From a phage: 64,000 bases of DNA. Of the stretch, positions 2,555 to 64,000 are shown one piece after another; position 1 is the first letter of the stretch, and each line of letters starts with the position of its first letter. The notes under the pieces were generated by a model. It was not told where the DNA came from. It did no database searches and was given only the letters and a program-made list of their open reading frames with translations. The stretch lies in assembly GCA_011911785.1 (NCBI GenBank), contig GCA_011911785.1_4084.1; one strand, written 5' to 3'. The translations under genes and the position numbers were made by a program.

Positions 2555-2587
<33 letters not shown>

Positions 2588-2588
2588 C

Positions 2589-2644
<56 letters not shown>

Positions 2645-2645
2645 T

Positions 2646-2879
<234 letters not shown>

Positions 2880-2882
2880 TGT

Positions 2883-3227
<345 letters not shown>

Positions 3228-41398: not shown

Positions 41399-41618
41399 GT
41401 TTATATCCTCATAAATTGATACCAATTCTAATGTATTTACCCACTTAAAGTACAAAAAATGATCAATTAAATGGGGAATCTTTAACAAATGAATTCATGA
41501 TGTACTTGATGAATTGCCCATACCAACGGATTCCCCAGTCCCAGCATACCACATGGTATTATCGAACTTTTTTATCATTGTAGTATCATAACCACACCAA
41601 ACATCATCAACATTAGTA

Positions 41619-42971: not shown

Positions 42972-43016
42972 ATATCCTCCTTTATTCATTATATTATATT
43001 TAATCAAAAAAGAAAA

Positions 43017-43035
43017 GCCAGTACAGAGTACTGGC
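43017..43035 (-). terminator. intrinsic terminator (GCCAGTAC-NNN-GTACTGGC), array cassette
   Basis: Perfect 8-bp stem followed on the minus strand by a T-rich run. Confidence 0.6.
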
Positions 43036-43046
43036 ATTTAAAATAA

Positions 43047-44222
43047 TCAAAATGTAGGAAGTTTGAATTCTCTCATAACAGATGAACTGCTTGCAGATAC
43101 ATTATCTGGTGATTTCCCTGCGTAGTATAATTTATTATCAATGAACATATACAATGTTGCATCATTTCCTGCTACAAGCGATTCACTTTTCTTAAATTTA
43201 ACACCACTAGGTAAAATTGCTTCAACAAATGAACCTGATTCTCGTGTAGTATTATTTGCCAATTGACCATTGTTATTATAACCAGTACTATAAATTTTAC
43301 CTGAACTATAATATACGAGTCCACGAGTACTAGTGTTTTCTATTCGAATGAATTCACTATCATCTGGAACTGTCGTTGATAGTACTGGGTTTAACTTATA
43401 AGCAGATGATACATTATTATTACCCAATTGACCATAACCTTGAAAGCCTAGTGTATACATAGGACATGATTCTGGTGTACCTTTTGTTATAATACCAATA
43501 TAATTCGTACTACAAAAAATGTCTATTACTTCTGTAATAGGTGTACCCTTATATTGAACCCAAGGGAATACATACGATTGTTGCTTACCATTTCCCAAAG
43601 TACCGGAAGTTGTTGTCCCAGTACGCCACATTGTATCATCAAGTTTAATAATCCAGTTAGCTGTCGTTATCGATGAACAGAATTTTTTAACATTATCCAC
43701 TAAAAATGTAAATTGATTATAATATGATGCAGTGTTTATACCAAACTTAGCACCAGTATTATCACCTAACAAATATAAACTATTATCTGTACCTAAAATC
43801 AAAGCATAATCATAACCCACGTATATATCTTTAATTCTTGAAATTCCAAATTGTGTAAAATAGCTTGTACATTCTGTGAATGTTGTTATATTATTGGTTG
43901 TATTATTACCCAGCCATTTATCTAAACCACTATAAAAGAATCTATCATCATTTGTGCGTATTAGACAAAAAGCGTTCATTGTACTGCACCAAAAATCTTT
44001 AACATTGCTATATATTTTTGTCCATTCAGTTAGTGGATTAGTATGACCTAAACCAAAAATTCCACCATTCTGAAGACCAATAGCCCATATTGAACCATTT
44101 TTATCAAGCATCATTGTACATGTATGTGAATAACCACCCGATGGTGTAACTAATTTAACAAAATTGGGAATATATGGTAAAACTTTATTTCCATAATCCA
44201 ACATTCTAACAAAAGGTAACAT
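43047..44222 (-). CDS. beta-propeller family protein, MLPFVRMLDYGN N-terminal module
   Basis: Conserved start context and N-terminus. Confidence 0.65.
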   Translation of the reverse strand: MLPFVRMLDYGNKVLPYIPNFVKLVTPSGGYSHTCTMMLDKNGSIWAIGLQNGGIFGLGHTNPLTEWTKIYSNVKDFWCSTMNAFCLIRTNDDRFFYSGLDKWLGNNTTNNITTFTECTSYFTQFGISRIKDIYVGYDYALILGTDNSLYLLGDNTGAKFGINTASYYNQFTFLVDNVKKFCSSITTANWIIKLDDTMWRTGTTTSGTLGNGKQQSYVFPWVQYKGTPITEVIDIFCSTNYIGIITKGTPESCPMYTLGFQGYGQLGNNNVSSAYKLNPVLSTTVPDDSEFIRIENTSTRGLVYYSSGKIYSTGYNNNGQLANNTTRESGSFVEAILPSGVKFKKSESLVAGNDATLYMFIDNKLYYAGKSPDNVSASSSSVMREFKLPTF

Positions 44223-44266
44223 ATTCCCTCCTTTATTCATTATACTATATTTAATCAAAAAGAAAT

Positions 44267-44285
44267 GCCAGCATCAAGTACTGGC
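44267..44285 (-). terminator. intrinsic terminator, array cassette (imperfect)
   Basis: GCCAGCATCAAGTACTGGC hairpin. Confidence 0.45.
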
Positions 44286-44292
44286 GAAATTA

Positions 44293-45483
44293 TTACAATT
44301 GTCTAGGTGTATCCAGAACATATCTATTTGTACTAGGACCACCATCATCATACGTTCCGGTTGAATATATATTTTTCATATCAGCAGTTAAAAATGTACG
44401 ATACGAACCTCTATATATTTTTATTTTATCATACATAGAATATGTTATTTGTGCTGGCAGTGGACATGCAGTAAATCTACCAATAGTAACATTAGAACCA
44501 ACACCCAATGTACCAGCATAACTACTCTCATTTAAACCAGTTGCATATACACCAGTACTCGTAACTAGTATACTAGATTGTGTTGGATATCCAGTATGGA
44601 TTGAATACAACGTGCCAGTTGGTAGAGTAGTACTATTATTTCCTAATACTGCTAGTGCTGTACTAGTCGTAGTGTTATTACCCCATGCACCATTCCTAGC
44701 TAAACCACCCACAAGGAACTGGCGTGCTCCTGTACTTGGATTTTCAACTAAAGCACTGACCGCACCACTTGAACAACCAGTGTATTGTAACGTTTTTGTA
44801 TATGTTGTACTTGGCTGATATAAAGTATATTCATTATAGGGAGTCCATGTGGTACTGGTACTTATACCTGACGTACCACCACCAATATATAAATTATTTT
44901 GTGTATCAAAAAACATTACACAGTTATTTGTTGACTGTATTTGTGCAATATCAACATTAGGCGTGACAGCTTTTACAAATGATCCATCTGTTATTTGTTG
45001 AGTACTACCAGTACCATCAGCGAATTGTCTAGCCCCACTCCAACCAGTACTCCATATTGTATTATTATCCATTAATACCGTAAACCACGTAGTACCTCCA
45101 TACATCTGTTTAATTGAAGTACTTGAACTTTGCGTGTACAAATTTTCAATATATTGGTTATAACTTAAAAACGTAGTAGTACTAGTTGGTAAACCAATAT
45201 GATCACCATATCCACAATAAAAATAATTTGAGTCATTATCTTTTACTAATAAAGTTCCTTGTGTAACCCAGCAATCATTAACGTTTTCTCTAATTAATGT
45301 CCATGATTTTAATGCAGTGTTGTTTCCCCTCCCAAATTTCCCAAAACTATTATCCCCACGTGCATATAGTTGACCATCCGTATACAGAACAACAACATCT
45401 AAATCAGTTGGGATTATTTTCTTAATTTGAAGTGGTACTGGGGTAATATTCCCATAATCAAATAATCTAACAAAAGGTAACAT
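44293..45483 (-). CDS. beta-propeller family protein, MLPFVRLFDYGN N-terminal module
   Basis: Conserved start context and N-terminus. Confidence 0.65.
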   Translation of the reverse strand: MLPFVRLFDYGNITPVPLQIKKIIPTDLDVVVLYTDGQLYARGDNSFGKFGRGNNTALKSWTLIRENVNDCWVTQGTLLVKDNDSNYFYCGYGDHIGLPTSTTTFLSYNQYIENLYTQSSSTSIKQMYGGTTWFTVLMDNNTIWSTGWSGARQFADGTGSTQQITDGSFVKAVTPNVDIAQIQSTNNCVMFFDTQNNLYIGGGTSGISTSTTWTPYNEYTLYQPSTTYTKTLQYTGCSSGAVSALVENPSTGARQFLVGGLARNGAWGNNTTTSTALAVLGNNSTTLPTGTLYSIHTGYPTQSSILVTSTGVYATGLNESSYAGTLGVGSNVTIGRFTACPLPAQITYSMYDKIKIYRGSYRTFLTADMKNIYSTGTYDDGGPSTNRYVLDTPRQL

Positions 45484-45529
45484 ATATTCCTCCTTTATTC
45501 ATTATACTATATTTACCCCAAAAAGAAAT

Positions 45530-45548
45530 GCCAGTATCAAGTACTGGC
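45530..45548 (-). terminator. intrinsic terminator, array cassette
   Basis: GCCAGTATCAAGTACTGGC hairpin. Confidence 0.5.
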
Positions 45549-45554
45549 CTATAT

Positions 45555-46724
45555 TTAAACTGGTGAATCTAATACAAATTCTAAACTACTAATGCCACCA
45601 TATGTGACATTTGTCCCTGTGCTATATACAAAATTACCATCAGTTATATAAGTTCGGTTATACCCACCTGCCATCTGCGACTTACTATAATCAAACCCAT
45701 CAGGAACGATTGCTTTGGTATATACTAATGCATTATTAGATGTACCAATACCTAACATACCAGCTTCTGAAGATTTATTGTAGCCGCAACAATATATACC
45801 ATCTGTTGTAGCAATAACTTGGTTATAATATGAAGTAATGTTAGCAATGCTTACTACATCACCGGGTGGCATTAGTGAAGCAGTTTGAACCTCAAATGCT
45901 CTATAATCACTGAGAGAACCATTTATCCCATCTGCTTGTGCACCAAATATTCTCGAACCGCCATTTGCGATGATGGTTTTACCAGTGGGATCAGTACCAA
46001 TTGCCATTGCCATTGAAGTACTATTCTCCATATAGTACTTGATATTAATTGTATTTCTTAAGCTGGTAGGAGCACCATAATATATAGTATATAACTTACC
46101 TCCTGAACTTGTAACTGCATTTACTCTTCCTGTATAAAATAGCCATCCTTGGTTTGTAACATAACCGTGCATTAAATTACTTGCAAACAATTTAACAGGT
46201 AATTGATCTGCTGCGGTCGGAACAGTACTTTTGACGAATTTTCTAGCAACATTGTTAGTTGTTGTCCCATCACCCAACTGACCATCACCCCCTGCTCCAG
46301 TACTCCATATTGTTTGGTCTGTTAGTAATACACTTGTAGTCTGATAACTAACTGCTATATCTAATATTGGTAATGTTAACGTATCGAATGTTGGCATAGC
46401 AGAAGTCCATATTGATACTGCTGCCCCTGGCATACCAACAGTTGTTGAACTTCCACTGTACCATATTTCATCATTGCTTTTCTTAATAACTATCGACGTG
46501 GCTCCCATCCAAAAATCTTGAACATCAGAAGTGCTAAAAGTCCATGTAGTAACAATATTTTTGTGACCTAAACCCAAAAGACCATTTGCATTCTCACCAC
46601 GCACATATAAATCACCACTGTTTGTTAAAACAGCAACATTATAGTTGTTAGCTAGTATTTTTTTAATATTTGGTTTAGCAGGTGCAATATTCCCATACTC
46701 TAACATTCTTACAAAAGGTAACAT
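45555..46724 (-). CDS. beta-propeller family protein, MLPFVRMLEYGN N-terminal module
   Basis: Conserved start context and N-terminus; GxGGDGQLGDG-like repeats. Confidence 0.65.
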   Translation of the reverse strand: MLPFVRMLEYGNIAPAKPNIKKILANNYNVAVLTNSGDLYVRGENANGLLGLGHKNIVTTWTFSTSDVQDFWMGATSIVIKKSNDEIWYSGSSTTVGMPGAAVSIWTSAMPTFDTLTLPILDIAVSYQTTSVLLTDQTIWSTGAGGDGQLGDGTTTNNVARKFVKSTVPTAADQLPVKLFASNLMHGYVTNQGWLFYTGRVNAVTSSGGKLYTIYYGAPTSLRNTINIKYYMENSTSMAMAIGTDPTGKTIIANGGSRIFGAQADGINGSLSDYRAFEVQTASLMPPGDVVSIANITSYYNQVIATTDGIYCCGYNKSSEAGMLGIGTSNNALVYTKAIVPDGFDYSKSQMAGGYNRTYITDGNFVYSTGTNVTYGGISSLEFVLDSPV

Positions 46725-46769
46725 AATTCCTCCTTTATTCATTATATTATATTTAATCCAAATAAGAAA

Positions 46770-46788
46770 GCCAGTATCAAGTACTGGC
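46770..46788 (-). terminator. intrinsic terminator, array cassette
   Basis: GCCAGTATCAAGTACTGGC hairpin. Confidence 0.5.
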
Positions 46789-46794
46789 TTTAAT

Positions 46795-47943
46795 TCATTG
46801 TATAAATGACATATCAACTTCGGTATATCTTGTAGTGTACTGCCCAGAACTTCCACCCATTACTAGATTGGAAAAACCAGTATAAAATAACTTACCTTCA
46901 TCTGTGAGAATCAAACTACCGATGTTATTCAGTACTAAACTGTAAGAACTATTAAAATTAGCATAGGACTGGGTATAATAGAACTGATTTGTAAGATTAC
47001 CAACACCCAATTGTCCACCAGTGTTAACCCCAGTTGCAAATATCGTAGTACCAAATCTGCGAATATGCGAGGCCATATTGCCGACGCAACAATGTACATT
47101 CTGAACATCCGAATTCAATAAAGTTGGTGTTGTGTATTGCTTAAGTGTTGTGCCTGTACCGAATTCATTACCATATGATACCCCATACTGTGTACCACAA
47201 GCGTACAATTTATTATCATCTTTAATAAAAAATGTACTCTGATAACTTACATCGACATCTATAACATTAGTCTGTATTCTAACAACTCCAGTACTAGCAG
47301 TTTGATTGCCTGTCCCTAACTGATAGTAAGTGTTAATACCACAACCCCATAATGTATTATCTTCTTTTAGGTATATGTTACCAACAGCTTTTTTTACCGA
47401 TGATATGGCTTCAATCTTAACAAAGGCGTTAAATGAATTTGTATTTGTGCCATTACCAAAAGATGATCTGGTTGATGTGCTGTTTGTTCCGCAGCAATAT
47501 AAAGTACCATCAGTTGTTATCAAATTCACTTTAAGATCACTGTAACTACTCATGTATTTTATATCAGAAACATTAATACCACTGGATGTTATCCATGAAG
47601 TACAATCTGTCCACGTGTTATAATATGCACCTGAACCAGAAAACGCACTCGGACTTCCTGTTATAAACACTTTTCCAGTACCGTCTTCTTCATATAATTG
47701 ACAACCACTACTGTTATTTTCCAAAAGAACTCTTTTAACATTAGTTGCACTAAGAATAAATTTACTTGACGATACACCAGTCCCCGTACCCTGACTGACT
47801 GCTGCTGAAGCATACAAATTTTTAGTGTATGTATCATGAAAATACATAGCACTACCACCGGAATATATTTTAAAACGTGTACTAGGATCTGGTGGAATTG
47901 GTGCAATATTCCCATAATCTAACATTCTTACAAAAGGTAACAT
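46795..47943 (-). CDS. beta-propeller family protein, MLPFVRMLDYGN N-terminal module
   Basis: Conserved start context; YYQLGTGN, GGQLGVGN repeats. Confidence 0.65.
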   Translation of the reverse strand: MLPFVRMLDYGNIAPIPPDPSTRFKIYSGGSAMYFHDTYTKNLYASAAVSQGTGTGVSSSKFILSATNVKRVLLENNSSGCQLYEEDGTGKVFITGSPSAFSGSGAYYNTWTDCTSWITSSGINVSDIKYMSSYSDLKVNLITTDGTLYCCGTNSTSTRSSFGNGTNTNSFNAFVKIEAISSVKKAVGNIYLKEDNTLWGCGINTYYQLGTGNQTASTGVVRIQTNVIDVDVSYQSTFFIKDDNKLYACGTQYGVSYGNEFGTGTTLKQYTTPTLLNSDVQNVHCCVGNMASHIRRFGTTIFATGVNTGGQLGVGNLTNQFYYTQSYANFNSSYSLVLNNIGSLILTDEGKLFYTGFSNLVMGGSSGQYTTRYTEVDMSFIQ

Positions 47944-47988
47944 AATTCCTCCTTTATTCATTATATTATATTTAATCCAAATAAGAAA

Positions 47989-48007
47989 GCCAGTATCAAG
48001 TACTGGC
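47989..48007 (-). terminator. intrinsic terminator, array cassette
   Basis: GCCAGTATCAAGTACTGGC hairpin. Confidence 0.5.
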
Positions 48008-48013
48008 ATTATG

Positions 48014-49123
48014 TTATTTTGGTAAATCAATTTTAGTAAAGACTGCAACATCCTCGCTTGCACCGGGAATGGCGTAATACGTTCCAGTACTATATACATC
48101 TCCATTTTTGGTTAATATTGAAGTCAAACCATCACTAAAAAGAACATCCCTAATCTCACTAACTTCAACGGGTAATTGTAAATTTGTAGCACTATATATA
48201 GCACCAGTTTGAGAATTGTTTAATCCCAAACCACGGTTCGCCCCAACACCCTTCTGATATGTACTGGTAATTACCATTTGTGTAGCAGTATTTAATGCAG
48301 GTGAATTCGTCATAAACAACGGAGAACTATTAGGAAAAGTACTTGCAGGAACTGCACGGAATGTAGTCGTGCCTGAACTAAGAAAGTTTGGAGTTTGACC
48401 ACATACGAAATATGATGTACCATTATAGTAATTAAATGCATTACCACCAATGGCTGCATCGATTACACCAGAACTACGTAATCCCCAAGTGTTAATTTGT
48501 GTTTGGTCCCCTGTACCATGCTGCCCACTGCTATTCCATCCAGAACTATATAGCTTATTATCTAATGTAATATACATACTATCATTTGCATTAGTCATTA
48601 CTTTACGCACGTTAGTAGCACATTGAGTTAATGTGTAAATCGATGATGAGCCAATACCTAAAGAACCACGATATCCATTATCTCCTGCACCATAGAGTAC
48701 TGAACTAGTGCTAAGTACAAATATTAAACCATTTGTACATACAATATTAGCAATTTCACTCACTGGTATAGCATTGGTAAACCAATTAGTCCTTTCAACT
48801 AATATAGTACTGTAAGAAGTAGTTGTAGAAGATGAGAACCAGTACGTTTCACCCGATGTCCATATCGTATTATCATTTTTAATAATAACAAGTGTACGAC
48901 CACCCACGAAAAAATTAGAAACATCTGAACTTACTAATATCCATGAAGATACCGTGTTGTTATTACCATTTCCAGATTCACCACCTTGATTTCTACCTAT
49001 GTAATATAAATCATGTGAATCAGTCAATAAGAATTGACCTTGTGTAGAAGCACCAACTTTAATTATATTTTTAGGACCAGGTACAATATTCCCATACTCT
49101 AACATTCTAACAAAAGGTAACAT
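48014..49123 (-). CDS. beta-propeller family protein, MLPFVRMLEYGN N-terminal module
   Basis: Conserved start context and N-terminus. Confidence 0.65.
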   Translation of the reverse strand: MLPFVRMLEYGNIVPGPKNIIKVGASTQGQFLLTDSHDLYYIGRNQGGESGNGNNNTVSSWILVSSDVSNFFVGGRTLVIIKNDNTIWTSGETYWFSSSTTTSYSTILVERTNWFTNAIPVSEIANIVCTNGLIFVLSTSSVLYGAGDNGYRGSLGIGSSSIYTLTQCATNVRKVMTNANDSMYITLDNKLYSSGWNSSGQHGTGDQTQINTWGLRSSGVIDAAIGGNAFNYYNGTSYFVCGQTPNFLSSGTTTFRAVPASTFPNSSPLFMTNSPALNTATQMVITSTYQKGVGANRGLGLNNSQTGAIYSATNLQLPVEVSEIRDVLFSDGLTSILTKNGDVYSTGTYYAIPGASEDVAVFTKIDLPK

Positions 49124-49169
49124 AATTCCTCCTTTATTCATTATACTATATTTAATACAAATAAGAAAA

Positions 49170-49188
49170 GCCAGTACAGAGTACTGGC
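49170..49188 (-). terminator. intrinsic terminator, array cassette
   Basis: GCCAGTACAGAGTACTGGC hairpin. Confidence 0.6.
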
Positions 49189-49195
49189 TATTATA

Positions 49196-50338
49196 TTATT
49201 TCCACGGTAGAAGTGAATCAGGAACTCTGGTTGGTACTCTAACGGCTGGAACATTTCCAAGTTCAGGTAAACCACTCATATACAAATTGTTATTTTCATC
49301 AATTATCATTGAATAGAAATTATCAATTACGAAGCCTGAAATTCGTCTTCCTTCTAATGCATCAAGAACCATTTCGGTGAAAGTTAGTATATTTTCGGAT
49401 GTTTGATTAACACCACATGCACCATAGGTATTTCGACCACAAGTATATAACTTATTATTATTTTTAACAACACATCCATTCCCTTCGTTGTTGGATAAAC
49501 CACCCACCAACTCTATTTCACCTTGGAATGATAAATTGGGAATTAATGTACTCATTGGTACTGCTGATACTCTACCTACACCAGCTTGACCATATGCATT
49601 TGGTGAAGCAACCTTCACTGAACCATCATTAAGAAATATATATGAAGTACGGTATGTATTTACAGCTTGTATAGCATTGGTGATCGTATTGTCTTTTGTA
49701 AAACTTAATATATTTGATGTTGTTGTACTACCAGGAGCAACAGTATTTCCTGCATACCAATAGGAGCCATCATCAAGTACTAACCCAGTACTGAGCAAAG
49801 AACAGCCATAACTTTTAACATTTTCTATAGTGCTGTATCTGAACGATGTGACATTAGCTGTTGACGCGTTACCAAATACACCACCTTCGCCAGCACCACA
49901 GTAGAACCATTTTCCATTTTTTAAAAATACACGCAAATTCTGCCCAACAGCAATACCATCAATATCATCAGCACTGACACCAAAATCAGTGAAGTACTGG
50001 GTTACATCAATCCAAACCCCATTTGTATTTGTTCCGATTTGTGGCATTACTATACTAGCACCTGTGAACCAAATAGTTCCATCATTCTTAATGGCAATGG
50101 AACCAAGAACACCACCCCAGTAACGTTCAATATTATTATTCACACGGGTCCATACGGTGGATGATTGTAATGAACCATTACCACCTTGTCCAAATGAAGA
50201 TGAACCATACCAGTACAAGTCACCATTAACATGCAAATAAAAACGAGTATTATAATTTGCTTGTAATCTATTTTTAAATAGAGGTTTTGGTTCTGGTGCT
50301 TCATTTCCATACTCTAACATTCTAGCAAAAGGTAACAT
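49196..50338 (-). CDS. beta-propeller family protein, MLPFARMLEYGN; near-duplicate of 50412..51554
   Basis: Same length (380 aa) and long identical stretches with neighbour. Confidence 0.7.
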   Translation of the reverse strand: MLPFARMLEYGNEAPEPKPLFKNRLQANYNTRFYLHVNGDLYWYGSSSFGQGGNGSLQSSTVWTRVNNNIERYWGGVLGSIAIKNDGTIWFTGASIVMPQIGTNTNGVWIDVTQYFTDFGVSADDIDGIAVGQNLRVFLKNGKWFYCGAGEGGVFGNASTANVTSFRYSTIENVKSYGCSLLSTGLVLDDGSYWYAGNTVAPGSTTTSNILSFTKDNTITNAIQAVNTYRTSYIFLNDGSVKVASPNAYGQAGVGRVSAVPMSTLIPNLSFQGEIELVGGLSNNEGNGCVVKNNNKLYTCGRNTYGACGVNQTSENILTFTEMVLDALEGRRISGFVIDNFYSMIIDENNNLYMSGLPELGNVPAVRVPTRVPDSLLPWK

Positions 50339-50385
50339 AATTTCCTCCTTTATTCATTATACTATATTTAATACAAATAAGAAAA

Positions 50386-50404
50386 GCCAGTACAGAGTAC
50401 TGGC
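50386..50404 (-). terminator. intrinsic terminator, array cassette
   Basis: GCCAGTACAGAGTACTGGC hairpin. Confidence 0.6.
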
Positions 50405-50411
50405 TATTATA

Positions 50412-51554
50412 TTATTTCCACGGTAGAAGTGAATCAGGAACCCTTGTCGGTACATTTGTAGTAGACACCCCATCAAGATTTGGTACACCGCATGTATATA
50501 AATTATCAGCATCGTCAACTAACATCGTATAGTTATATCCCCTACAAAAACTACTAACATTACGACCTTCTAATGCAGTAAGAATCATTTCAGTGAATGT
50601 TGTTATATTTGTCGAGGTTGAACCAACACCACATTGTCCATTTGAATTAAGACCACATAAAAATAACTTATTATCATTTTTAATTATACAGGATGGTCCA
50701 GTAAGGTTTGTACCAAGCTCACCCACTAACTCTATTTCACCTTGGAATGCTAAATTTGGAATTAATGTACTCATAGGGGCTGGTGTTGTATTCCCAGTAC
50801 CTGCTTGACCACGTTCGTTGGAAGATGCAACTTTAACTGTTCCATCACTAAGAAATATATAGGAAGTTTCAATTGTATTGACTGCTTTAATTGCAGTGCT
50901 GATAGAAGTTTCTTGTGTAAATCTTAGCACGTTTTGTGCTGACGTTCCCGATATAAACGTATTACCTGCATACCAATATGTACCATCATTGAGTACTAAT
51001 GCAGTACTTCGAATTGCACAACCAGCACTTCGAACATTTTCTATAGTACTGTACGTGAATTGTGAAACGCTTGCCGATGAACCATTTCCGAATACACCAC
51101 CACTCCCAGCACCACAGAAGAACCACTTTCCATTTTTCAAAAATACACGCATACACGCAGATATAACAATACTATCAATATCATCAGCACTGACACCGAA
51201 ATCAGCAAAGTGCGATGTCACATCAACCCAAACACCGTTAGTGTTTGATGCAATTACTGGAATAACAGAACTTGTACCAGTGTACCAAATAGTACCATCT
51301 TTCTTTATCGCTATTGTTCCTTGAACACCACCCCAATATCGTACAACATTTGTATTGACGAGAGTCCATGCGGTTGAAGAGTTCAATGAACCATTACCAC
51401 CTTGACCATATGATGAAGAACCAAACCAATATAGATTACCATTGGTGTGTAAATAAAATTTGGCATCTGCCGAGCATTGTAACCTATTTTTTAATCGTGG
51501 TGCGGGTTCCGGTGCAATATTCCCGTACTCTAACATTCTTGCAAAAGGTAACAT
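50412..51554 (-). CDS. beta-propeller family protein, MLPFARMLEYGN
   Basis: Starts 12 nt after upstream gene stop (co-transcribed). Confidence 0.7.
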   Translation of the reverse strand: MLPFARMLEYGNIAPEPAPRLKNRLQCSADAKFYLHTNGNLYWFGSSSYGQGGNGSLNSSTAWTLVNTNVVRYWGGVQGTIAIKKDGTIWYTGTSSVIPVIASNTNGVWVDVTSHFADFGVSADDIDSIVISACMRVFLKNGKWFFCGAGSGGVFGNGSSASVSQFTYSTIENVRSAGCAIRSTALVLNDGTYWYAGNTFISGTSAQNVLRFTQETSISTAIKAVNTIETSYIFLSDGTVKVASSNERGQAGTGNTTPAPMSTLIPNLAFQGEIELVGELGTNLTGPSCIIKNDNKLFLCGLNSNGQCGVGSTSTNITTFTEMILTALEGRNVSSFCRGYNYTMLVDDADNLYTCGVPNLDGVSTTNVPTRVPDSLLPWK

Positions 51555-51566
51555 AATTCCTCCATA

Positions 51567-52463
51567 TTATTTAAAAACATACTGCGTATTAACACGAGTG
51601 CCATTGTCAAAACCAAGTACATAAAATATCTCAGCACTATTCTTAGAACCAAATAACGCACCAGTACTACTACTCAAAGTAGTATTAACCGCTAAGGGAA
51701 TCCATATGTCTTCTTCTGCATCGTATCTCAATAAATTTAATGCACCATACGACACTGCATATATATTTTTATCATATGTACTGTAACATATTTTACTAGG
51801 GTTATTACCACCAACTGGTGCTATGTTAGACCACACCGCACTTTGTATATGATATTTTTGTGCAGTACTAGTACCTTGACCAGTAATATATATGTAAGTA
51901 CCATCCGTACACATATCACCACCTCCATTGTTATTTGTTCCATCACTTGTACCTAATGATGACCATGTATTAGTACTTGGAGTATAACTGTATAACGAAT
52001 TATTAGTAGGCGAACCCCACAAATATATCTTATCCCCAGCAGTAATCATCTTACTATACGCCAGTTGACTAGGCTTCCCAATACTGTTAGTGTTCAGAAT
52101 CCATGTATTTGTACTTATATTATATACATAAAAATTATTACTACTATTACCTGAACCACCAAACAAATATATTTTTCCCTGATAAGCACATAACGCACTA
52201 CCAAATGTAGATACAGGTGCATTGGCTAATTGTGACCACGTTCTTGTAGTTAAATTAAAACTCCATAACTGATTATCCGTCTGCACCGCATTCTGTATAC
52301 CACCAAATATATAAGCAATATTACTTTCCGCATCATACGTATAACCAAAGTTATTTCGTGCTGAAGGTACTGGTGTTGTAGTAAATTGTGTTCGTACTCC
52401 ACCATTTGGGCCAGGTAATGGACCTACATTCCCGAACTCAAACATTCTAACAAAAGGTAACAT
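51567..52463 (-). CDS. beta-propeller family protein, MLPFVRMFEFGN; Kelch-like repeats
   Basis: Conserved cassette start; IYLFGG/IYIFGG-type motifs. Confidence 0.65.
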   Translation of the reverse strand: MLPFVRMFEFGNVGPLPGPNGGVRTQFTTTPVPSARNNFGYTYDAESNIAYIFGGIQNAVQTDNQLWSFNLTTRTWSQLANAPVSTFGSALCAYQGKIYLFGGSGNSSNNFYVYNISTNTWILNTNSIGKPSQLAYSKMITAGDKIYLWGSPTNNSLYSYTPSTNTWSSLGTSDGTNNNGGGDMCTDGTYIYITGQGTSTAQKYHIQSAVWSNIAPVGGNNPSKICYSTYDKNIYAVSYGALNLLRYDAEEDIWIPLAVNTTLSSSTGALFGSKNSAEIFYVLGFDNGTRVNTQYVFK

Positions 52464-52511
52464 AATTCCTCCTTTATTCATTATACTATATTTAATCAAA
52501 AAAGAAAACCC

Positions 52512-56023: not shown

Positions 56024-56221
56024 ATGAATGACCATAAAGAATTCTATATAAGTAAACTCAAAGAGAATGAACAAGTATGGATTAACGCTCTAATCCCTCT
56101 ACCAATGACTCGATATGAATTTAATAAATGTACTAATATAGCAATAGACCCTTCTCCTGTTCTAGAGAATGTACAGTACAATCAGTACTACTATATCTTA
56201 ATGCTTATATATAGGAAGTAA
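56024..56221 (+). CDS. small paralog-array protein (HKEFY...LIYRK)
   Basis: Internal ATG 2 nt after previous stop. Confidence 0.6.
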   Translation: MNDHKEFYISKLKENEQVWINALIPLPMTRYEFNKCTNIAIDPSPVLENVQYNQYYYILMLIYRK

Positions 56222-56851
56222 TTAAACACATATAGCTAGGGGAAGCTCCGTAGTGCAAGCATTATACAGGCTTTAACATATGTTGCATATGTTAAAATTC
56301 AGCCTGGACAAATGCGATCACTAGGATTCTCCCCAGGCTAAACCCCGTAATCATAGGTAGTCATAAGTAATCATATATAAACATTTAAGTAATCATTTAT
56401 AATCATTGCAGTGAAGAGTATTGAGTACTGTTTCCCCTATATGATTCAGTACTGATATCCCACTAAGTAGGCAAATGAAGTCGCCCAAAATTTACATAAT
56501 TTTACAGTACTGAACAATTGCAAAACAAATCATTTCCAATCAAAAGTAATCACGGAATGACCAGTACTGAAAACTCCCAATCACCTATTCAAAAAAGTTC
56601 AATTTACCCTTTGTCAAAAATCCCGAATACCCATTGGGGAAAATTCCGAATACCCCTTGAGGCTCCAGCAAAAAGTTGGTTAGTACTCCATTGTAAATCT
56701 GGATCGTAAAAATTTTGGAGTACCTATGAAATAAAAGTTGGATCTTCGAAAGTTGAAATTTACATTGGGACATATAGGATTAGTGGGATATAATGAGTTT
56801 TGAAGAGATACAGAAGATATGTTTTCAGTACTGAATAATGAAAGAAATCTA

Positions 56852-56879
56852 TTGACATTATGATTCAGTACTGTATAAT
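56852..56879 (+). promoter_or_regulatory. orphan sigma70-type promoter (TTGACA-16-TATAAT) in non-coding hub
   Basis: Consensus hexamers with no ORF downstream. Confidence 0.45.
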
Positions 56880-57280
56880 GTTCTACATAGAGTGATGGAT
56901 TGCCGCAAACAATTCAGAGCCTTAACCCTCCTGTCGTGAGACAGTACAGAAGAGATTGAATCCTCCTATGCAGTGGTTCATCTTTGACAACCTCTTTTTT
57001 CGTAATATAAACAGTACTGTTATTAACAGAATGGTAGCAGTACTGATATTAATCTAATATAATGTTACCATGCAATGTGGTGAATTTCCCTTAACAGTAT
57101 TCAGTACTACATGATAGTCTTCATCCTCCTAGGGTAACATAGTGAGGGCTATTGTGGCAGTACTGAATACTCCTTTCACAAGATAGATCTATGGTATAGT
57201 ACTGACGGATTTTGGGCGTAGTAACCCTGGGTGGATTTTGGACGTAGAGATGCCTAGCCCTCCAGAAGTCTGGAAGTAAA

Positions 57281-57408
57281 GATGGCTATCCCTCTAGACG
57301 GCTGGATGGCTAGATTTCTAGATGGCTGTACTGCTAGACGTTTGGACGGCTAAACGGCTAAACGGCTAAACGGCTAGATGGTTAAACGTCTGGATGTATA
57401 GACGGCTA
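57281..57408. repeat. tandem array of ~16 copies of an 8-bp unit (consensus GAYGGCTA)
   Basis: Direct reading: gatggcta, gacggctg, gatggcta, gacggcta, aacggcta x3, gatggtta, gacggcta etc. in strict 8-bp register. Confidence 0.85.
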
Positions 57409-57573
57409 AATCAAAATTTTTATTTTGTTTTTTCCAATAGTTCCCCTACCGCGTGGGGATGGTTTCCCCGCAGTATCTGGAGTTAGATTTTTCTGAATCT
57501 GGAATCATTATCTAATAAACTGGGGGCAATGTCAACCGCCTGGATGAATATTTTTAAAAATAATCTAGTACTG

Positions 57574-57650
57574 AATTTTGGGCGTAACTATGCACCCGGT
57601 GGGCTAGAGTCTTTCTCGACTTGATGAAATAATTATAGCAGTACTGAATG
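57574..57650 (+). repeat. repeat element B copy (ttttgggcgta...gcacccggtgggctagag...taattata)
   Basis: Shares ~50-bp core with copies at 57786, 59660, 61176. Confidence 0.5.
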
Positions 57651-57785
57651 ATAAAAGCAATAGCCTAAGTGTAAAAAGTTTTAATTAATTTGCTTGCCAT
57701 CCTGGGGCGTACTATGGTACTATGATTCAGTACTGAGAAAGTGCTTTTACCTGCTAGGGTGCGGGAGTGTATCCTTTTTAAATTT

Positions 57786-57860
57786 ACTGAATTTTGGGCG
57801 TAGTTCCGCACCCCCTGGGGTATCCGCTTTCTCGCGTCTATGTAGTAATTATACGCTTTT
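57786..57860 (+). repeat. repeat element B copy
   Basis: ttttgggcgtagttccgcaccccctggggtatccgctttctcgcgtctatgtagtaattatac. Confidence 0.5.
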
Positions 57861-58078
57861 TTAGTACTGAGTCAATAGCTAAAAACAAAATAATTGAAAA
57901 TAATTTAACGCGTTTAAATGGCCCGTAAAGCCCTGGATTGTTGGGAGTGGTGCAAATGTATAGCTTAGGTGTATTAATGCGTTAGAATGCGTATGAGGCC
58001 GTTTTAAGGGTATAGTACTGAATAATAGTACTCCTATATAGAAAGAAAACTATTTTAAAAAGTATTTGTAGAAAGTAC

Positions 58079-58106
58079 TTGCAAAGTATTGGGAAAGGTG
58101 TAGAAT
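58079..58106 (+). promoter_or_regulatory. early-type promoter (aaaagtacTTGCAA-16-TAGAAT-gttttacatc)
   Basis: First of >=12 near-identical promoter units in block C. Confidence 0.6.
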
Positions 58107-58524: not shown

Positions 58525-58538
58525 GTTTTAAAAAGTAC

Positions 58539-58566
58539 TTGCAAACTAAGTTTAAAAGCGTATAAT
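58539..58566 (+). promoter_or_regulatory. early-type promoter (TTGCAA-16-TATAAT)
   Basis: Repeated promoter unit. Confidence 0.6.
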
Positions 58567-58578
58567 ACTTTCTATCAG

Positions 58579-58597
58579 GTGGGGAATAGTTCCCCAC
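58579..58597 (+). promoter_or_regulatory. 5' leader hairpin (GTGGGGAA-TAG-TTCCCCAC)
   Basis: Perfect 8-bp inverted repeat. Confidence 0.6.
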
Positions 58598-58618
58598 TAC
58601 AAATAAGAGAATTTAAAA

Positions 58619-59523: not shown

Positions 59524-59659
59524 GCAGTTTACAAATCTTTACAATTGCCGGTATTGACTTATTTTGTCAGTACTGGCATAATGTATCTATTGAAACGAAC
59601 AATTTGGCCCACGGGGTGCGGGAGTGTATCTATAGAAAAAGTAGTTTAGTACAGTTACA

Positions 59660-59710
59660 ATTGTGCACCCGGTGGGTTAGCTGTTGTCATGGGGTATATT
59701 ATACCAGTAC
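59660..59710 (+). repeat. repeat element B copy (partial)
   Basis: gtgcacccggtgggttagctgttgtcatggggtatattatac. Confidence 0.4.
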
Positions 59711-59772
59711 TTGATAATGCTGTCAATACTTTTTTTTACTATTCAGTACTGAAAACTATTTTTAAAAAGTAC

Positions 59773-59973: not shown

Positions 59974-60207
59974 ATGATCGAACAAATCAAAACTACTACA
60001 AGCCGGACTGGAACGAAAGTACATTGCATCGCTGATAACGAAAAAGGCGTACCCTATTGTGCTGTACACGTAAACACAGATGGCGACTATTGGTTAACTG
60101 TATATGGGAGTTATTCGTTTGCTCGACCTGCTCATAGTAAGATCCTGGACGTAGTGAAGCCTACCGGAAAGGATATCACGGTAGAAAAATATTTTACTAA
60201 GCACTAA
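59974..60207 (+). CDS. hypothetical protein
   Basis: ATG after CCAGGAGTAAGCATC. Confidence 0.6.
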   Translation: MIEQIKTTTSRTGTKVHCIADNEKGVPYCAVHVNTDGDYWLTVYGSYSFARPAHSKILDVVKPTGKDITVEKYFTKH

Positions 60208-60295: not shown

Positions 60296-60583
60296 ATGAG
60301 CAAAGTAATTGACTATAAAGTGTTAACCAAATCATTTTCTATCAGCCAGTGCACCGATGGTTATTGGCTTTATGATGAAACACGCGGCATGAATTTAGCT
60401 ATGCGGGAGAAAACTGCTGAGGCGGCGTATGTGCAAGCCCTGGAATACTACCAGAAACGTTTAAAGGAAGTAGAAGAGGATTATAAAAGCCTCAAAGAGA
60501 AAGTAGATAATTTCGTCGGTCAATTCGTTGACGATGACGAGGAAGACGGGTACTACTGCAACCGCTGCGGATCTTACAATTAA
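60296..60583 (+). CDS. hypothetical protein with C-terminal CNRCG motif
   Basis: ATG after AGAGGATTATCTA. Confidence 0.6.
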   Translation: MSKVIDYKVLTKSFSISQCTDGYWLYDETRGMNLAMREKTAEAAYVQALEYYQKRLKEVEEDYKSLKEKVDNFVGQFVDDDEEDGYYCNRCGSYN

Positions 60584-60600
60584 GTACTGAGGATTATCTA

Positions 60601-60804
60601 ATGAGTGATTTAATCGACCGTATCAAAGAGCTTGAAGAAAAAGAATTGCAGTTAATCGGCTTACAAAATAAAATCTTTCATGATTTGGGGAGTTTTATCA
60701 ATGCCTGGGATAGTGGCGATCCTGCTGCGTTACCTGCTAACCGCGAGGCGATGATCAATGATGTGCGTGGTGTCTTTGAGTATGTTTTAAAGCAATTAAA
60801 TTAA
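60601..60804 (+). CDS. hypothetical protein
   Basis: ATG after GAGGATTATCTA (duplicate of upstream RBS); co-transcribed. Confidence 0.6.
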   Translation: MSDLIDRIKELEEKELQLIGLQNKIFHDLGSFINAWDSGDPAALPANREAMINDVRGVFEYVLKQLN

Positions 60805-60890: not shown

Positions 60891-61112
60891 ATGGCTAATA
60901 TCACTACTCTTTCCCAACTTGAAGCACTGGTTAAATCTATGCGGGAACATGCCGACAATATCGGCGTAAAAGATCCAGCCGTTTGCTTCTGCGACGAATT
61001 GAATGATGATACATTGGTAATAGCAGAAGTCCAGGACGTTTCTAACTATTCATCGCGTTACACTGGCGGCGTAGCAAATAAAGGTGACTTCTGTTTATAC
61101 CTTACAAAATAA
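60891..61112 (+). CDS. hypothetical protein
   Basis: Internal ATG after GAGGAAAATAAA; track start is inside the leader hairpin. Confidence 0.6.
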   Translation: MANITTLSQLEALVKSMREHADNIGVKDPAVCFCDELNDDTLVIAEVQDVSNYSSRYTGGVANKGDFCLYLTK

Positions 61113-61117
61113 CAACG

Positions 61118-61147
61118 AGGGGATCAATTGATCCCCTTTCTTTTTTC
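61118..61147 (+). terminator. intrinsic terminator (GGGGATCAATTGATCCCC plus T-run)
   Basis: Perfect palindromic stem followed by T-run. Confidence 0.75.
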
Positions 61148-61175
61148 AGTACTGAATCATTTAATAGACGGATCT

Positions 61176-61235
61176 ATGCACCCGGTGGGTTAGAGACTGT
61201 TTCGTCTTTATGTAGTAATTATACAGTACTGGATG
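61176..61235 (+). repeat. repeat element B copy
   Basis: tatgcacccggtgggttagagactgtttcgtctttatgtagtaattatac. Confidence 0.5.
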
Positions 61236-61357
61236 CAGTTGTCAAGAACTATTTTTCAAATACTTTTATATTAATGTACTATACAATAGTTTTTAAACGC
61301 GTATAATGTTTTACATCTAGTCGGGAATACTCCCTAGTACTAACAAAGGATATACAA

Positions 61358-61657: not shown

Positions 61658-61677
61658 TACATCAGTACTGAATCACT

Positions 61678-61705
61678 AGCCCACTATAAGCAGTGGGCTT
61701 TTTTG
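61678..61705 (+). terminator. intrinsic terminator (AGCCCACT...AGTGGGCT plus T-run)
   Basis: Hairpin plus T6; near-duplicate of terminator at 62408. Confidence 0.7.
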
Positions 61706-61752
61706 TAGTATCGTAGTACTGGAATACTTTGAAAATAGTTTTAAAAAAGTAG

Positions 61753-61780
61753 TTGACATTACCGCAAAAAGGCGTAGAAT
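61753..61780 (+). promoter_or_regulatory. early-type promoter (TTGACA-16-TAGAAT) with ~120-nt leader
   Basis: Hexamers; leader shares motifs with the orphan unit at 59773. Confidence 0.55.
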
Positions 61781-61903
61781 GTATTACATCAAGACGGGGA
61801 ACACTAAGTAGACCGCCAGTAAGTCGAACGAAAAACTGGACACGTCGAGAAAACTTTGATACACTAACTAACGTAAACTAAACTTTAATTGAGGAATTAC
61901 ATA

Positions 61904-62386
61904 ATGGCTAACGTAAAATCATTCATCAAAGCACTGGTAGCAAATGAAACTAACGTAGCGGCAGAGATCCTGGCCGAACTGGATAGCGATACCATGAAAG
62001 CAGTACGCAACAATTTTAACATTGCGTACAGCGAAGCGAAAGAACTGCAAGCTAATAAAGCGGCAGCACTTGAAGCTGAGAAGGCAGCACGCGAAGCTGA
62101 ATTGCAGAAAACGATTGAAGATATTAACGCCGCCGTCGCTGGGCTTGATCTGGAAGTAGTTACCGAAATGGCACGTAAAGCCCTGGCAGCGAAATACGGG
62201 GAAGACAAGCCAGAAGTAAAAGCTAAAAAATGGATTCAGGAACGCGTGACGGTAGTACTGGATAACGGCGAGGAATACACTGTACCAGTACGCGGTAACT
62301 GCATTGCGGTAGTACTGGATGCTATCAAAGAAAGCGGATTGACTCGCGAGGAATGGATCGAAGCTCATCGCAAAGTTGAAGCATAA
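61904..62386 (+). CDS. hypothetical Ala/Glu/Lys-rich protein
   Basis: ATG after GAGGAATTACATA; antisense track ORFs are low-complexity artefacts. Confidence 0.65.
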   Translation: MANVKSFIKALVANETNVAAEILAELDSDTMKAVRNNFNIAYSEAKELQANKAAALEAEKAAREAELQKTIEDINAAVAGLDLEVVTEMARKALAAKYGEDKPEVKAKKWIQERVTVVLDNGEEYTVPVRGNCIAVVLDAIKESGLTREEWIEAHRKVEA

Positions 62387-62407
62387 CAATTAAAGTACTG
62401 AATCACT

Positions 62408-62435
62408 AGCCCACCTTAAACAGTGGGCTTTTTTG
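62408..62435 (+). terminator. intrinsic terminator (AGCCCACC...CAGTGGGCT plus T-run)
   Basis: Hairpin plus T6. Confidence 0.7.
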
Positions 62436-62588
62436 TGTCTATCGTTTACCAGGCCAGCAGCACCGCCTAGAATCGATTCTAACGCATTAAACTGATTATC
62501 TGATGCATCGCCCTAGCTGGTGGCGTTAAGGTCGTTAGAATGCGATTGAGGACGTTTAAAGTATTTTGCAAAAAGTAATAAAAAGTAC

Positions 62589-62616
62589 TTGCACGATTAA
62601 GAGATTAGCGTATAAT
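62589..62616 (+). promoter_or_regulatory. early-type promoter (TTGCAC-16-TATAAT)
   Basis: Repeated unit. Confidence 0.55.
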
Positions 62617-62661
62617 TAATTTCATCAAGGCGAGACACCTTAACTAACTGAGGATATAAAG

Positions 62662-62814
62662 ATGAATACTTATGAACTGGATTGTTTCACTTTACAAGTA
62701 ATGTCAGTATGCAGCAAGAAAGATTGGTCATCAAAGGAATTTAAAGCAGTTATCGCGTGTGCAAAACACGGCAAGACTATCAATGAAACGGCATCAATCA
62801 TTGATAAACTTTAA
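62662..62814 (+). CDS. small protein (50 aa)
   Basis: ATG after GAGGATATAAAG; below ORF-track cutoff. Confidence 0.4.
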   Translation: MNTYELDCFTLQVMSVCSKKDWSSKEFKAVIACAKHGKTINETASIIDKL

Positions 62815-62822
62815 AAAATAGT

Positions 62823-62851
62823 TTGACAATAGTTTTAAGTACTGACATAAT
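62823..62851 (+). promoter_or_regulatory. early-type promoter (TTGACA-17-CATAAT)
   Basis: Repeated unit. Confidence 0.55.
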
Positions 62852-62885
62852 ACATACATCAACTACTGAATAGGAATTAAAAAAA

Positions 62886-63198: not shown

Positions 63199-63342
63199 AT
63201 GAAAACTTGTCAATGTGGTAAAAAATCTATTACTGGTTTAAAGCGGGGCGTTGCTCTTTGTCAGTATCACTATAATGCTCAAGTATGGGGTAAAGAGTGG
63301 GCCGACCAGGTTGAAGCAGTAAAGAAAGCAAAAAGTAAGTAA
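63199..63342 (+). CDS. small Cys-containing protein (47 aa, CQCG...CQYH)
   Basis: ATG after AGAGGAAACGAAA; below ORF-track cutoff. Confidence 0.4.
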   Translation: MKTCQCGKKSITGLKRGVALCQYHYNAQVWGKEWADQVEAVKKAKSK

Positions 63343-63361
63343 AATTATTATCACAGTACTA

Positions 63362-63390
63362 TTGACATAGATTGATAGTACTGGCATAAT
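63362..63390 (+). promoter_or_regulatory. early-type promoter (TTGACA-17-CATAAT), copy 1 of duplicated promoter-leader
   Basis: Unit at ~63343-63433 repeated almost exactly at ~63647-63737. Confidence 0.6.
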
Positions 63391-63433
63391 AGATTTTATC
63401 AAGACAACACATATTAATTTAAGGAATACTAAA

Positions 63434-63646
63434 ATGGCTATCATTATTAAAAACAAAGTTAACAAGACTATCGTTAAACTGGCAGAAGTGAAAGAAGGTT
63501 ATAAAGTATCTTGGGAGGGTTTTTATAGGATGTTCACAGATATAGACGATGCAATCAAGTACTACACTGATACGGTTGCTGACTTTGTTCGTTCTGATGT
63601 AGTAATGGCAGTTGCACAACATAAAGCATCGAAAGAAAGTAAGTAA
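63434..63646 (+). CDS. hypothetical protein
   Basis: ATG after AAGGAATACTAAA. Confidence 0.6.
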   Translation: MAIIIKNKVNKTIVKLAEVKEGYKVSWEGFYRMFTDIDDAIKYYTDTVADFVRSDVVMAVAQHKASKESK

Positions 63647-63665
63647 AAATATTATCACAGTACTA

Positions 63666-63694
63666 TTGACATAGTTTGATAGTACTGGCATAAT
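63666..63694 (+). promoter_or_regulatory. early-type promoter, copy 2 of duplicated promoter-leader
   Basis: Near-identical to 63362..63390 unit. Confidence 0.6.
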
Positions 63695-63737
63695 AGATTT
63701 TATCAAGACAACACATATTAATTTAAGGAATACTAAA

Positions 63738-64000
63738 ATGGCTAAAACTATCATTAACACCGTATCCCTGGCTGCAATCCGTGCAATCAATGTTGACGGT
63801 AAACGTTGGACTGATTCATATGGCAATACTTATCATTCTTGTCATGTAAGCGTTGAACTGGATAACGGTGTGAATGATCTGGCGGTTGAATCATTTACTT
63901 ATGGCTATGAAGATGCATATCAACAAACGGCGTTATCTCTCTTAAAGGAATCAGTAGATGGGCTTGATACTGTTGAAACCTCCCTTAATCGTTTGTGCAA
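63738..64000 (+). CDS. hypothetical protein (3' end outside window)
   Basis: ATG after AAGGAATACTAAA; open to window end. Confidence 0.55.
   Translation, partial: MAKTIINTVSLAAIRAINVDGKRWTDSYGNTYHSCHVSVELDNGVNDLAVESFTYGYEDAYQQTALSLLKESVDGLDTVETSLNRLC

Follow-up and report, generated by a model that had tools for sequence, protein, structure and literature searches.

Why would a phage carry two almost identical promoter and leader segments, 304 nucleotides (nt) apart, in front of two different small genes? The question is raised by the right-hand end of contig GCA_011911785.1_4084.1, a phage DNA of 64,000 nt that was analysed at its full length and is referred to here as the window. The answer we favour, with a probability of about 0.8 on the strength of sequence comparisons, is that the two segments (copies A and B) are modular early-gene regulatory cassettes of an Asteriusvirus, and that exchange between such cassettes deletes, inserts and replaces whole gene-plus-cassette units.

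The extent of the repeat is the first point. The preliminary description had noted near-identical segments at 63343-63433 and 63647-63737; these are the two intergenic spacers, each 91 nt long and identical at 89 of 91 positions, and the true repeat is longer. Ungapped comparison and a repeat search delimit a direct repeat of 109 nt with 107 identical positions (Table 1), so that the extended identity sought by self-comparison is indeed present. The copies differ only at 63345 (T in copy A, A in copy B) and 63370 (A in copy A, T in copy B), and similarity drops to background directly beyond both ends. Each copy includes the final 11 nt of the open reading frame (ORF) upstream, both ORFs ending in -SK and a stop codon, as well as ATGGCTA, the opening 7 nt of the ORF downstream. 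A match of this length cannot be a chance event. The genes that follow encode different proteins, as had been claimed: the 70-amino-acid (aa) product and the homologue of gp282 of phage 121Q show no BLASTP match at E ≤ 1 and fall into different PHROGs. Two further duplications cited in the preliminary description are also real, namely a ribosome-binding site (GAGGATTATCTAATGAG, 17 nt identical) at 60281 and 60586 and a terminator module, the copies of which are 93% identical over 43 nt.

Each copy has the layout of a complete expression signal. A promoter scan scores both as TTGACA-17-CATAAT, with 11/12 matches to the sigma-70 consensus, an extended -10 TG and a spacer that ends in TGG; from this we infer promoter activity for both copies, with the start site of copy A near 63397-63398. 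The stop codon inside copy A (TAA, 63340-63342) is followed directly by an A/T-rich tract (TAAAATTATTATCAC), and an inverted repeat surrounds the -35 element, each arm carrying one AGTACT box (63355-63360 and 63377-63382). As RNA, positions 63340-63400 fold to -18.8 kcal/mol (z = -5.7 against shuffled sequences). The stem is A/U-rich: a 12-bp inner stem encloses the -35 element, and an outer stem pairs the A/T tract with the -10 element. In an alignment of 29 copies, 84% of cells are paired and three double (compensatory) changes occur, compared with 0.3 in shuffles; all three come from the phages W70 and outra, which belong to other subfamilies. The terminator scan does not flag this promoter hairpin and finds no terminator-like site between 63434 and 63738. 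The leader proper of copy A is unstructured by folding.

Nucleotide identity places the window in Asteriusvirus, among the 121Q/PBECO4/A4-like jumbo coliphages. The stretch from 61 to 64 kb is 85-93% identical to Escherichia jumbo phages of this genus (121Q, PBECO4, A4, G17 and others). A core stretch at 28-36 kb matches A4 at 97% over two thirds of its length and at 85-88% over the rest; by these identities no deposited genome is closer than A4, and the window comes from a member of the genus that is divergent or has not been deposited. Around the repeats the identity to A4 is a mosaic: 97% in the 47-aa gene, 87% in the 70-aa gene, 108/109 in copy B and 51% in the next gene.

If the repeats are exchange points, relatives should show alternative gene content between them, and the comparison proposed in the preliminary description reveals it. 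Homologous regions were compared in 121Q, A4, UE-S1, G17, WPEC3, PBECO4, SHEFM2K, E9.1, Turkey3, vB_Ec-M-J, BF17, Ecwhy_1 and Turkey5; a pattern scan of IMG/VR matched 121Q only, and INPHARED records were used instead. Between the 75-aa gene and gp283, about 40 genomes show six arrangements, written here by the genes for the 47-aa and 70-aa products and by gp282 or its allele A4_280. The order 47/70/282 is found in the window, 121Q, WPEC3, Turkey3, vB_Ec-M-J, BF17, Ecwhy_1 and Turkey5, and 47/70/A4_280 in A4. The 70-aa gene is missing in 47/282 (G17 and, by match geometry, ten others) and in 47/A4_280 (UE-S1, SHEFM2K and, by match geometry, four more). The 47-aa gene is missing in 70/282 (PBECO4 and, by match geometry, six more) and in 70/A4_280 (E9.1).

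The gp282 and A4_280 proteins are alleles of one family with 33% aa identity, and the replacement of one by the other in A4, UE-S1, SHEFM2K and E9.1 sets in right after ATGGCTA, that is, at the end of the repeat. Presence or absence of the 70-aa gene and the gp282/A4_280 allele occur in all four combinations, so the four-gamete test is positive. Only promoter copy B separates these two loci; therefore exchange or repeated insertion and deletion must have occurred there.

The junctions themselves are informative. In G17, a unit of 304 bp comprising the 70-aa gene and one repeat is absent; a single hybrid copy stands in its place, and the flanking alignments overlap by 121 nt. A hybrid copy with such an overlap is the expected residue of recombination between copies A and B, or of insertion of the 304-bp unit. 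In PBECO4 and E9.1, the 47-aa gene and its promoter are absent: the junction lies in 14-15 nt of Shine-Dalgarno homology (CTAAGAGGAAAC...AAAATG), and the type I promoter of the 47-aa gene is joined to the 70-aa gene. The 70-aa gene stands behind a type II or a type I promoter, depending on the phage. In UE-S1 and SHEFM2K, a short leader meets the A4_280 allele at AAAATGGCTA.

Leaders are exchanged as well. Three leader types exist and are freely combined with genes; for example, the long leader precedes the "C" gene (121Q gp290) in 121Q and A4, whereas in UE-S1, G17 and WPEC3 this gene follows a third leader. In the eight other sequenced genomes with the order 47/70, copies A and B share only their first ~77-80 nt, beyond which copy A continues into a short leader of the TAAGAGGAAACAATA type. 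The full 109 nt of identity is peculiar to the window, which alone has the long leader at both copies; its copy A leader equals its copy B leader, and its copy A agrees with copy B of A4 at 108/109 positions. Even within the core, all four combinations of the polymorphic sites 63345 and 63370, which lie within 25 nt, are present among the copies. The adjacent 70-aa gene is unusual too: its best nt identity to any deposited phage is 86%, with Asteriusvirus alleles at 79-86% and the Vequintavirinae phages W70, A7_1 and A5-4 about as close at 83%, whereas its flanks are 95-99% identical. Most simply, a leader-plus-gene unit would have entered by import or conversion, crossovers having taken place within the conserved promoter cores at either end.

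The pattern is not confined to one repeat pair. The region from 58 to 64 kb is a run of very small plus-strand ORFs, each behind a near-consensus sigma-70 promoter; it holds eleven type I and four type II-like promoter copies, mostly upstream of ORFans. When alignments of the window from 55 to 64 kb were chained with eight relatives, nine indel or replacement events were found, mostly with end-points in promoter or leader modules. At four of them the flanks are direct repeats, each one a regulatory module: 81 nt, 45 nt, 14-15 nt where the 47-aa gene is absent, and 121 nt where the 70-aa gene is absent. The 81-nt and 45-nt cases are overlaps between high-scoring segment pairs (HSPs) in which a promoter single in the window is duplicated in relatives around an extra gene (Table 1); in the 45-nt case the relatives have 272 extra nt. 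At 62630-62871 the junction sets 242 nt against 29 nt, with end-points after CATCAAG (the start-site region) and just before the next Shine-Dalgarno sequence. In A4, UE-S1, G17 and WPEC3, a paralogue or allele of the 77-aa gene (59974-60207), 65% identical to it, occupies a different position, behind the 73-aa gene, and is flanked there by the duplicated 45-nt promoter.

These observations fit one mechanism. A cassette begins at the stop codon of a small ORFan and ends at the start codon of the ORFan behind it, with AAAATGGCTA as the start context; with its strong predicted promoter for the host sigma-70 it would supply its small gene with its own immediate-early transcription and translation signals, as the sequence suggests. 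Dozens of similar cassettes, arranged head-to-tail a few hundred bases apart, probably serve as portable homology for a T4-like recombination machinery. Whole gene-plus-cassette units would be deleted, inserted or replaced, with their neighbours unharmed, by crossovers at the start context, around the Shine-Dalgarno sequence or in the promoter core. The 70-aa gene would be one such 304-bp unit, its leader replaced by, or converted to, that of the downstream copy; identity would extend over 109 nt here rather than the ~77-80 nt of relatives because of this replacement or conversion. On a wider scale, the same small genes and promoters also circulate among Asteriusvirus, Vequintavirinae and Stephanstirmvirinae coliphages.

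Several points weigh against this explanation or narrow it. The 51-nt core, about half of the repeat, is kept constant across genera by strong purifying selection, and its identity alone is no sign of recent exchange. Covariation favours the hairpin weakly, by three cells, and would suit a symmetric site for a protein as well as a hairpin in RNA. The numbers of G17-, PBECO4- and UE-S1-type genomes beyond those fetched derive from match geometry only. Some events show no overlap and end at the CATCAAG start-site motif or at terminators (59928/60205, 61652/61700 and 62629/62872), and those at 60538-60800 end within the 3' ends of ORFs. Junctions with microhomology (14-15 nt) or no overlap therefore indicate that homologous recombination between long repeats is not the sole route. 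Moreover, surviving indels would be expected to be intergenic under any mechanism, with selection keeping genes intact. The modules are the predominant junctions, with others existing beside them; what speaks specifically for homologous exchange is the overlapping homology.

Among the alternatives, the one that survives best explains the repeats by selection only: the exact promoter would be functionally required, for instance by a regulator that binds the AGTACT inverted repeat, and the repeats would have no role in rearrangement. Its strength lies in the conservation of the core. At least eight promoters of Erwinia phage Hallingskeid match positions 63340-63390 at 90-96% identity, and Klebsiella phage RaK2 has a recognisable form of this core, despite protein identities of only 32-64% (the range for the early-region proteins tested against Hallingskeid), and AGTACT sits at fixed promoter positions. 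Similarity at the nt level between the early regions of the window and Hallingskeid is almost confined to regulatory modules. The conserved part includes the spacer and the upstream arm, which go beyond what sigma-70 contacts would need. However, selection on the promoter leaves the identity of the ORF tail and of the leader unexplained, and the leader varies freely among other copies. Nor does it account for the exact presence or absence of 304 bp with a hybrid copy, or for the duplicated flanks of 81 and 45 nt. Selection shapes the core, but as the whole explanation we consider it unlikely.

A second alternative is moron-like accretion, in which small genes would have arrived singly by illegitimate recombination, each with its own promoter, and the repeats would be a consequence of insertion. 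Junctions with no homology or only 14-15 nt of it fit this proposal, as does the occurrence of cassette genes in unrelated phage subfamilies. Among the Vequintavirinae, phage W70, like A7_1 and A5-4, has counterparts of the 75-aa, 47-aa, gp289-like, 70-aa, 79-aa, 95-aa and gp288-like genes at 70-87% nt identity. Their order in W70 is different, the similarity blocks break in promoter modules, and the same promoter follows the 70-aa gene. The Stephanstirmvirinae phage outra shows a third order: gp290, A4_280, 79-aa, 75-aa, gp289 and 47-aa. Both altered orders, with the W70 junctions in promoter modules, count as evidence for the favoured explanation. Incoming promoters, however, need not be nearly identical to the resident ones, and the 70-aa gene has no accompanying terminator. 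Homologous exchange better explains the overlaps of 45-121 nt, the hybrid copies and the four-gamete patterns seen within 25 nt of the core, and single illegitimate insertions are quite improbable as the general route.

Two remaining alternatives have little weight. An assembly artefact, with the long copy A leader arising from repeat collapse or mis-joining of short reads, would explain why the window alone among nine 47/70 genomes has this leader at copy A; it is very improbable, given that the copies differ at two positions, that the adjacent 70-aa allele is itself unique and so fits a genuine import, and that ordinary reads readily cross a 109-nt repeat at a distance of 304 nt. If a promoter-plus-gene unit had been duplicated in tandem and its genes had then diverged into unrecognisable paralogues, the head-to-tail layout and the 304-nt period would be accounted for, but this proposal deserves next to no credence: the 70-aa protein and gp282 have no BLASTP similarity and different PHROGs, the non-coding part is 98% identical while the coding parts would have diverged fully, and both genes occur separately elsewhere.

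Table 1. Positions in the window of the repeat pair, its parts, the flanked genes and the regulatory modules at other junctions.
Feature	Position	Strand	Details
Repeat copy A	63332-63440	+	Upstream ORF tail with stop codon, promoter, leader, Shine-Dalgarno sequence, ATGGCTA
Promoter core of copy A (51 nt)	63340-63390	+	A/T-rich tract, inverted repeat, -35, -10
Inverted repeat (hairpin) around the -35 of copy A	63354-63383	+	Arms 63354-63365 and 63372-63383 (repeat search)
Sigma-70 promoter of copy A	63362-63390	+	TTGACA 63362-63367, 17-nt spacer, TG 63382-63383, CATAAT 63385-63390
Leader of copy A, long type (...ACACATATTAATTTAAGGAATACTAAA)	63391-63433	+	Shine-Dalgarno AAGGA 63421-63425, ATG 63434
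Repeat copy B	63636-63744	+	TTGACA 63666-63671, CATAAT 63689-63694, AGTACT 63659 and 63681, Shine-Dalgarno 63725, ATG 63738
47-aa ORFan	63199-63342	+	Last 11 nt (AAAGTAAGTAA) open copy A
70-aa ORFan, cassette gene between copies A and B	63434-63646	+	PHROG 35559, function unknown
121Q gp282 homologue, 5' part, cut by the window end	63738-64000	+	PHROG 6246; 95% aa identity to 121Q gp282
Type I promoter with hairpin leader	58530-58610	+	Twice in A4, flanking an extra 234-nt gene; 81-nt blastn HSP overlap
Promoter	61272-61316	+	Twice in A4, UE-S1, G17 and WPEC3, flanking an extra 237-nt gene
Promoter, 50-aa ORF, next promoter	62580-62872	+	62630-62871 absent in WPEC3, PBECO4, SHEFM2K and E9.1
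Terminator module, copy 1	61664-61706	+	Terminator scan; repeat search
Terminator module, copy 2	62394-62436	+	Terminator scan; repeat search

The flanked genes offer few hints of function. The 47-aa ORF is 100% identical to 121Q gp280 and 89% identical to W70_14 of a Vequintavirinae phage, and has no match in Pfam or PHROG. None of the flanked proteins yields a match above the Pfam curated cut-off, and the seven scanned against PHROGs fall into families of unknown function or into none. Slightly upstream, a 160-aa early protein (61904-62386) weakly resembles the Pfam family Tox-PL-2 (papain-fold toxin 2), at E = 0.0015 and with 19 bits where the curated cut-off is 25. Its leader (61779-61903) is unusually long, with ~115 nt between the promoter at 61753-61780 and the ORF; the first 56 nt of this leader are 89% identical to Hallingskeid, while the proteins have diverged.

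The distribution of these genes indicates that large virulent coliphages of Asteriusvirus, Vequintavirinae and Stephanstirmvirinae share a common pool of early ORFans. The pool includes gp288-, gp289- and gp290-like genes and the 47-, 70-, 75-, 79- and 95-aa ORFans, of which each of the two subfamilies carries a subset. In many Vequintavirinae and Stephanstirmvirinae phages with the 47-aa gene, similarity stops exactly at the start of the repeat (query positions 134-140).

The AGTACT boxes raise a question of their own. AGTACT is the commonest hexamer in the window, with 229 occurrences against ~22 expected and 6-7 per kb in the early region, and it is also the top hexamer in Hallingskeid (131 in 18 kb) and RaK2 (137 in 24 kb). 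Across the three genera concerned (Asteriusvirus, Alcyoneusvirus with RaK2, and that of Hallingskeid), its frequency is 10-17 times expectation. In most promoter-like sites it starts at -20/-19, where the following G gives the extended -10 TG, and at -42/-39; in Hallingskeid 20 of 24 sites, and in RaK2 15 of 21, have it at these fixed positions, and the RaK2 promoter consensus reads AAGTACTTGACA-N9-CAGTACTGTATAAT. AGTACT is found beside terminators too. Codon usage predicts 10.8 AGT-ACT Ser-Thr dicodons in the large late genes (38465-52499), but 30 are present, an enrichment of about 3-fold; the reverse dicodon occurs 6 times where 8.2 are expected. The homologous cassettes of W70 and outra mostly lack AGTACT.

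The excess of AGTACT is left unexplained by cassette exchange of the kind described for T4-like phages. In addition, Rak2-like jumbo phages might possess an ultraconserved palindromic control element, of which the repeat would be one copy and in which two AGTACT boxes ~22 bp apart would bracket the -35 element and be read by a phage-encoded or injected factor; this proposal is tentative, and we lean against it. If it is true, AGTACT could act genome-wide in the global control of transcription, in organising the DNA or in targeting recombination. Either way, the AGTACT-bearing core offers a handle on the control of early transcription in these jumbo phages. Two known host sites were considered in the search for a reader of AGTACT and judged unlikely: the SlmA site GTGAGTACTCAC, since the flanks here (CAGTACTG) do not fit, and the LexA box CTGT-N8-ACAG, since no ACAG half-site lies at the right distance. 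The literature searched held nothing relevant on AGTACT or CAGTACTG in these phages; the RaK2 paper contains no promoter analysis, and the promoter table for CBB does not include AGTACT. Six other palindromic hexamers (CGATCG, CCATGG, CAGCTG, AGGCCT, AGCGCT and ACCGGT) have zero copies in the window where ~6 of each are expected, which suggests restriction-site avoidance beside the AGTACT excess.

AGTACT sites are also dense upstream of the cassette run, in a stretch of ~2 kb (56200-58100) that has no ORF longer than 63 aa, is rich in promoters on both strands, and is likewise unannotated in 121Q, A4 and G17. Four paralogous minus-strand units are found at 57520-57680, 57740-57880, 59610-59730 and 61105-61250. 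Each has a consensus sigma-70 promoter (e.g. 61245 to 61218, 12/12 matches), a short ORF-free transcript and a conserved 22-nt core (CTCTAACCCACCGGGTGCATAG), and the unit at 61 kb ends at a bidirectional terminator (61117-61138). The four units are candidate small RNAs; they have no Rfam or tRNA match, and their folds are unremarkable. An Rfam search of 54-64 kb at E ≤ 0.1 gave one implausible retroviral match only. No tRNA genes lie near the repeat locus; a cluster of five is found at 922-3217 (Gly-TCC, Ser-GCT, Met-CAT, Asn-GTT and Thr-TGT). In vB_Ec-M-J, the stretch homologous to the cassette region is annotated within the direct terminal repeat.

If the two segments are exchangeable cassettes, the consequences reach beyond this locus. 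Promoter-cassette shuffling, so far documented in T4-like phages, would extend to the 350-kb Rak2/121Q group, and the same small early genes and promoters are seen to circulate in three unrelated groups of large virulent coliphages. This would provide a concrete mechanism for the fast turnover of host-takeover ORFans in phages under development for therapy, with recombination units defined exactly, as for the 304-bp unit.

The closest known counterparts are the PeSLs (promoter-early stem-loop cassettes) of RB49 and phi1. These are modules of ~100 bp composed of a stop codon, an A/T-rich tract, a sigma-70 promoter, a stem-loop of variable register, a Shine-Dalgarno sequence and a start codon, and they are abundant in hyperplastic regions upstream of ORFans (PMC2839356). 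ORFan192 lies between two PeSLs in RB49, a single PeSL takes its place in phi1, and mini-circles have been detected (PMC2839356). PeSLs were later extended to the pairs T4/PST and KVP40/nt-1 (PMC4122927), and terminator activity has been shown for them (PMC2839356; PMC4122927). RaK2 encodes a RecA-like protein, gp46/47-like nuclease subunits and an endoVII homologue (PMC3622015); because this related phage has T4-like recombination proteins, a mechanism of the PeSL type is plausible in the window phage.

Point by point, the likeness is close. Both copies have a strong predicted sigma-70-like promoter (11/12, with extended -10), the A/T-rich tract begins at the upstream stop codon, and a stable stem-loop overlaps the promoter, as in PeSLs, where it may overlap the -35 or the -10. 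The module is about 100 bp long (109 nt here) and closes with a Shine-Dalgarno sequence and a start codon; many copies lie in a plastic region of small ORFans; where one phage has an ORFan between two copies, a close relative has just one copy; and the modules are exchange points between otherwise unrelated genes. The differences are also clear. The phage here is a Rak2-like jumbo phage (Asteriusvirus), whereas PeSLs were described in T4-like phages (Tquatrovirinae). The stem is A/U-rich and formed from two AGTACT boxes, whereas PeSL stems are polyG/polyC. The promoter core is far more conserved, with 51 nt retained across genera, and exchange also proceeds via Shine-Dalgarno and ATGGCTA microhomologies. 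As all sequence-level features of PeSLs are found, the repeat pair can be regarded as PeSL-like cassettes in a new phage group, outside the original PeSL set. No report of such shuffling in Rak2-like phages was found in the literature searched.

Two other systems resemble the cassettes in part. Morons of lambdoid and other phages are extra genes with their own promoter and terminator, inserted between conserved genes. The 70-aa unit is similar in being a small accessory gene with its own promoter that is present or absent between the same neighbours, but it lacks a terminator, and its promoter is a member of a repeated family shared with neighbouring genes. In addition, morons lie in a prophage-expressed locus, whereas the genes here belong to the early region of a virulent phage. 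Integron cassettes are promoterless and move by integrase-mediated site-specific recombination between attC and attI. Both systems form promoter-proximal arrays of small mobile ORFs between repeated recombination sites that bear inverted repeats; unlike integron cassettes, every unit here has a promoter of its own, no integrase or attC-type site was found, although no search aimed at them was made, and the junctions fit general homologous or microhomology recombination.

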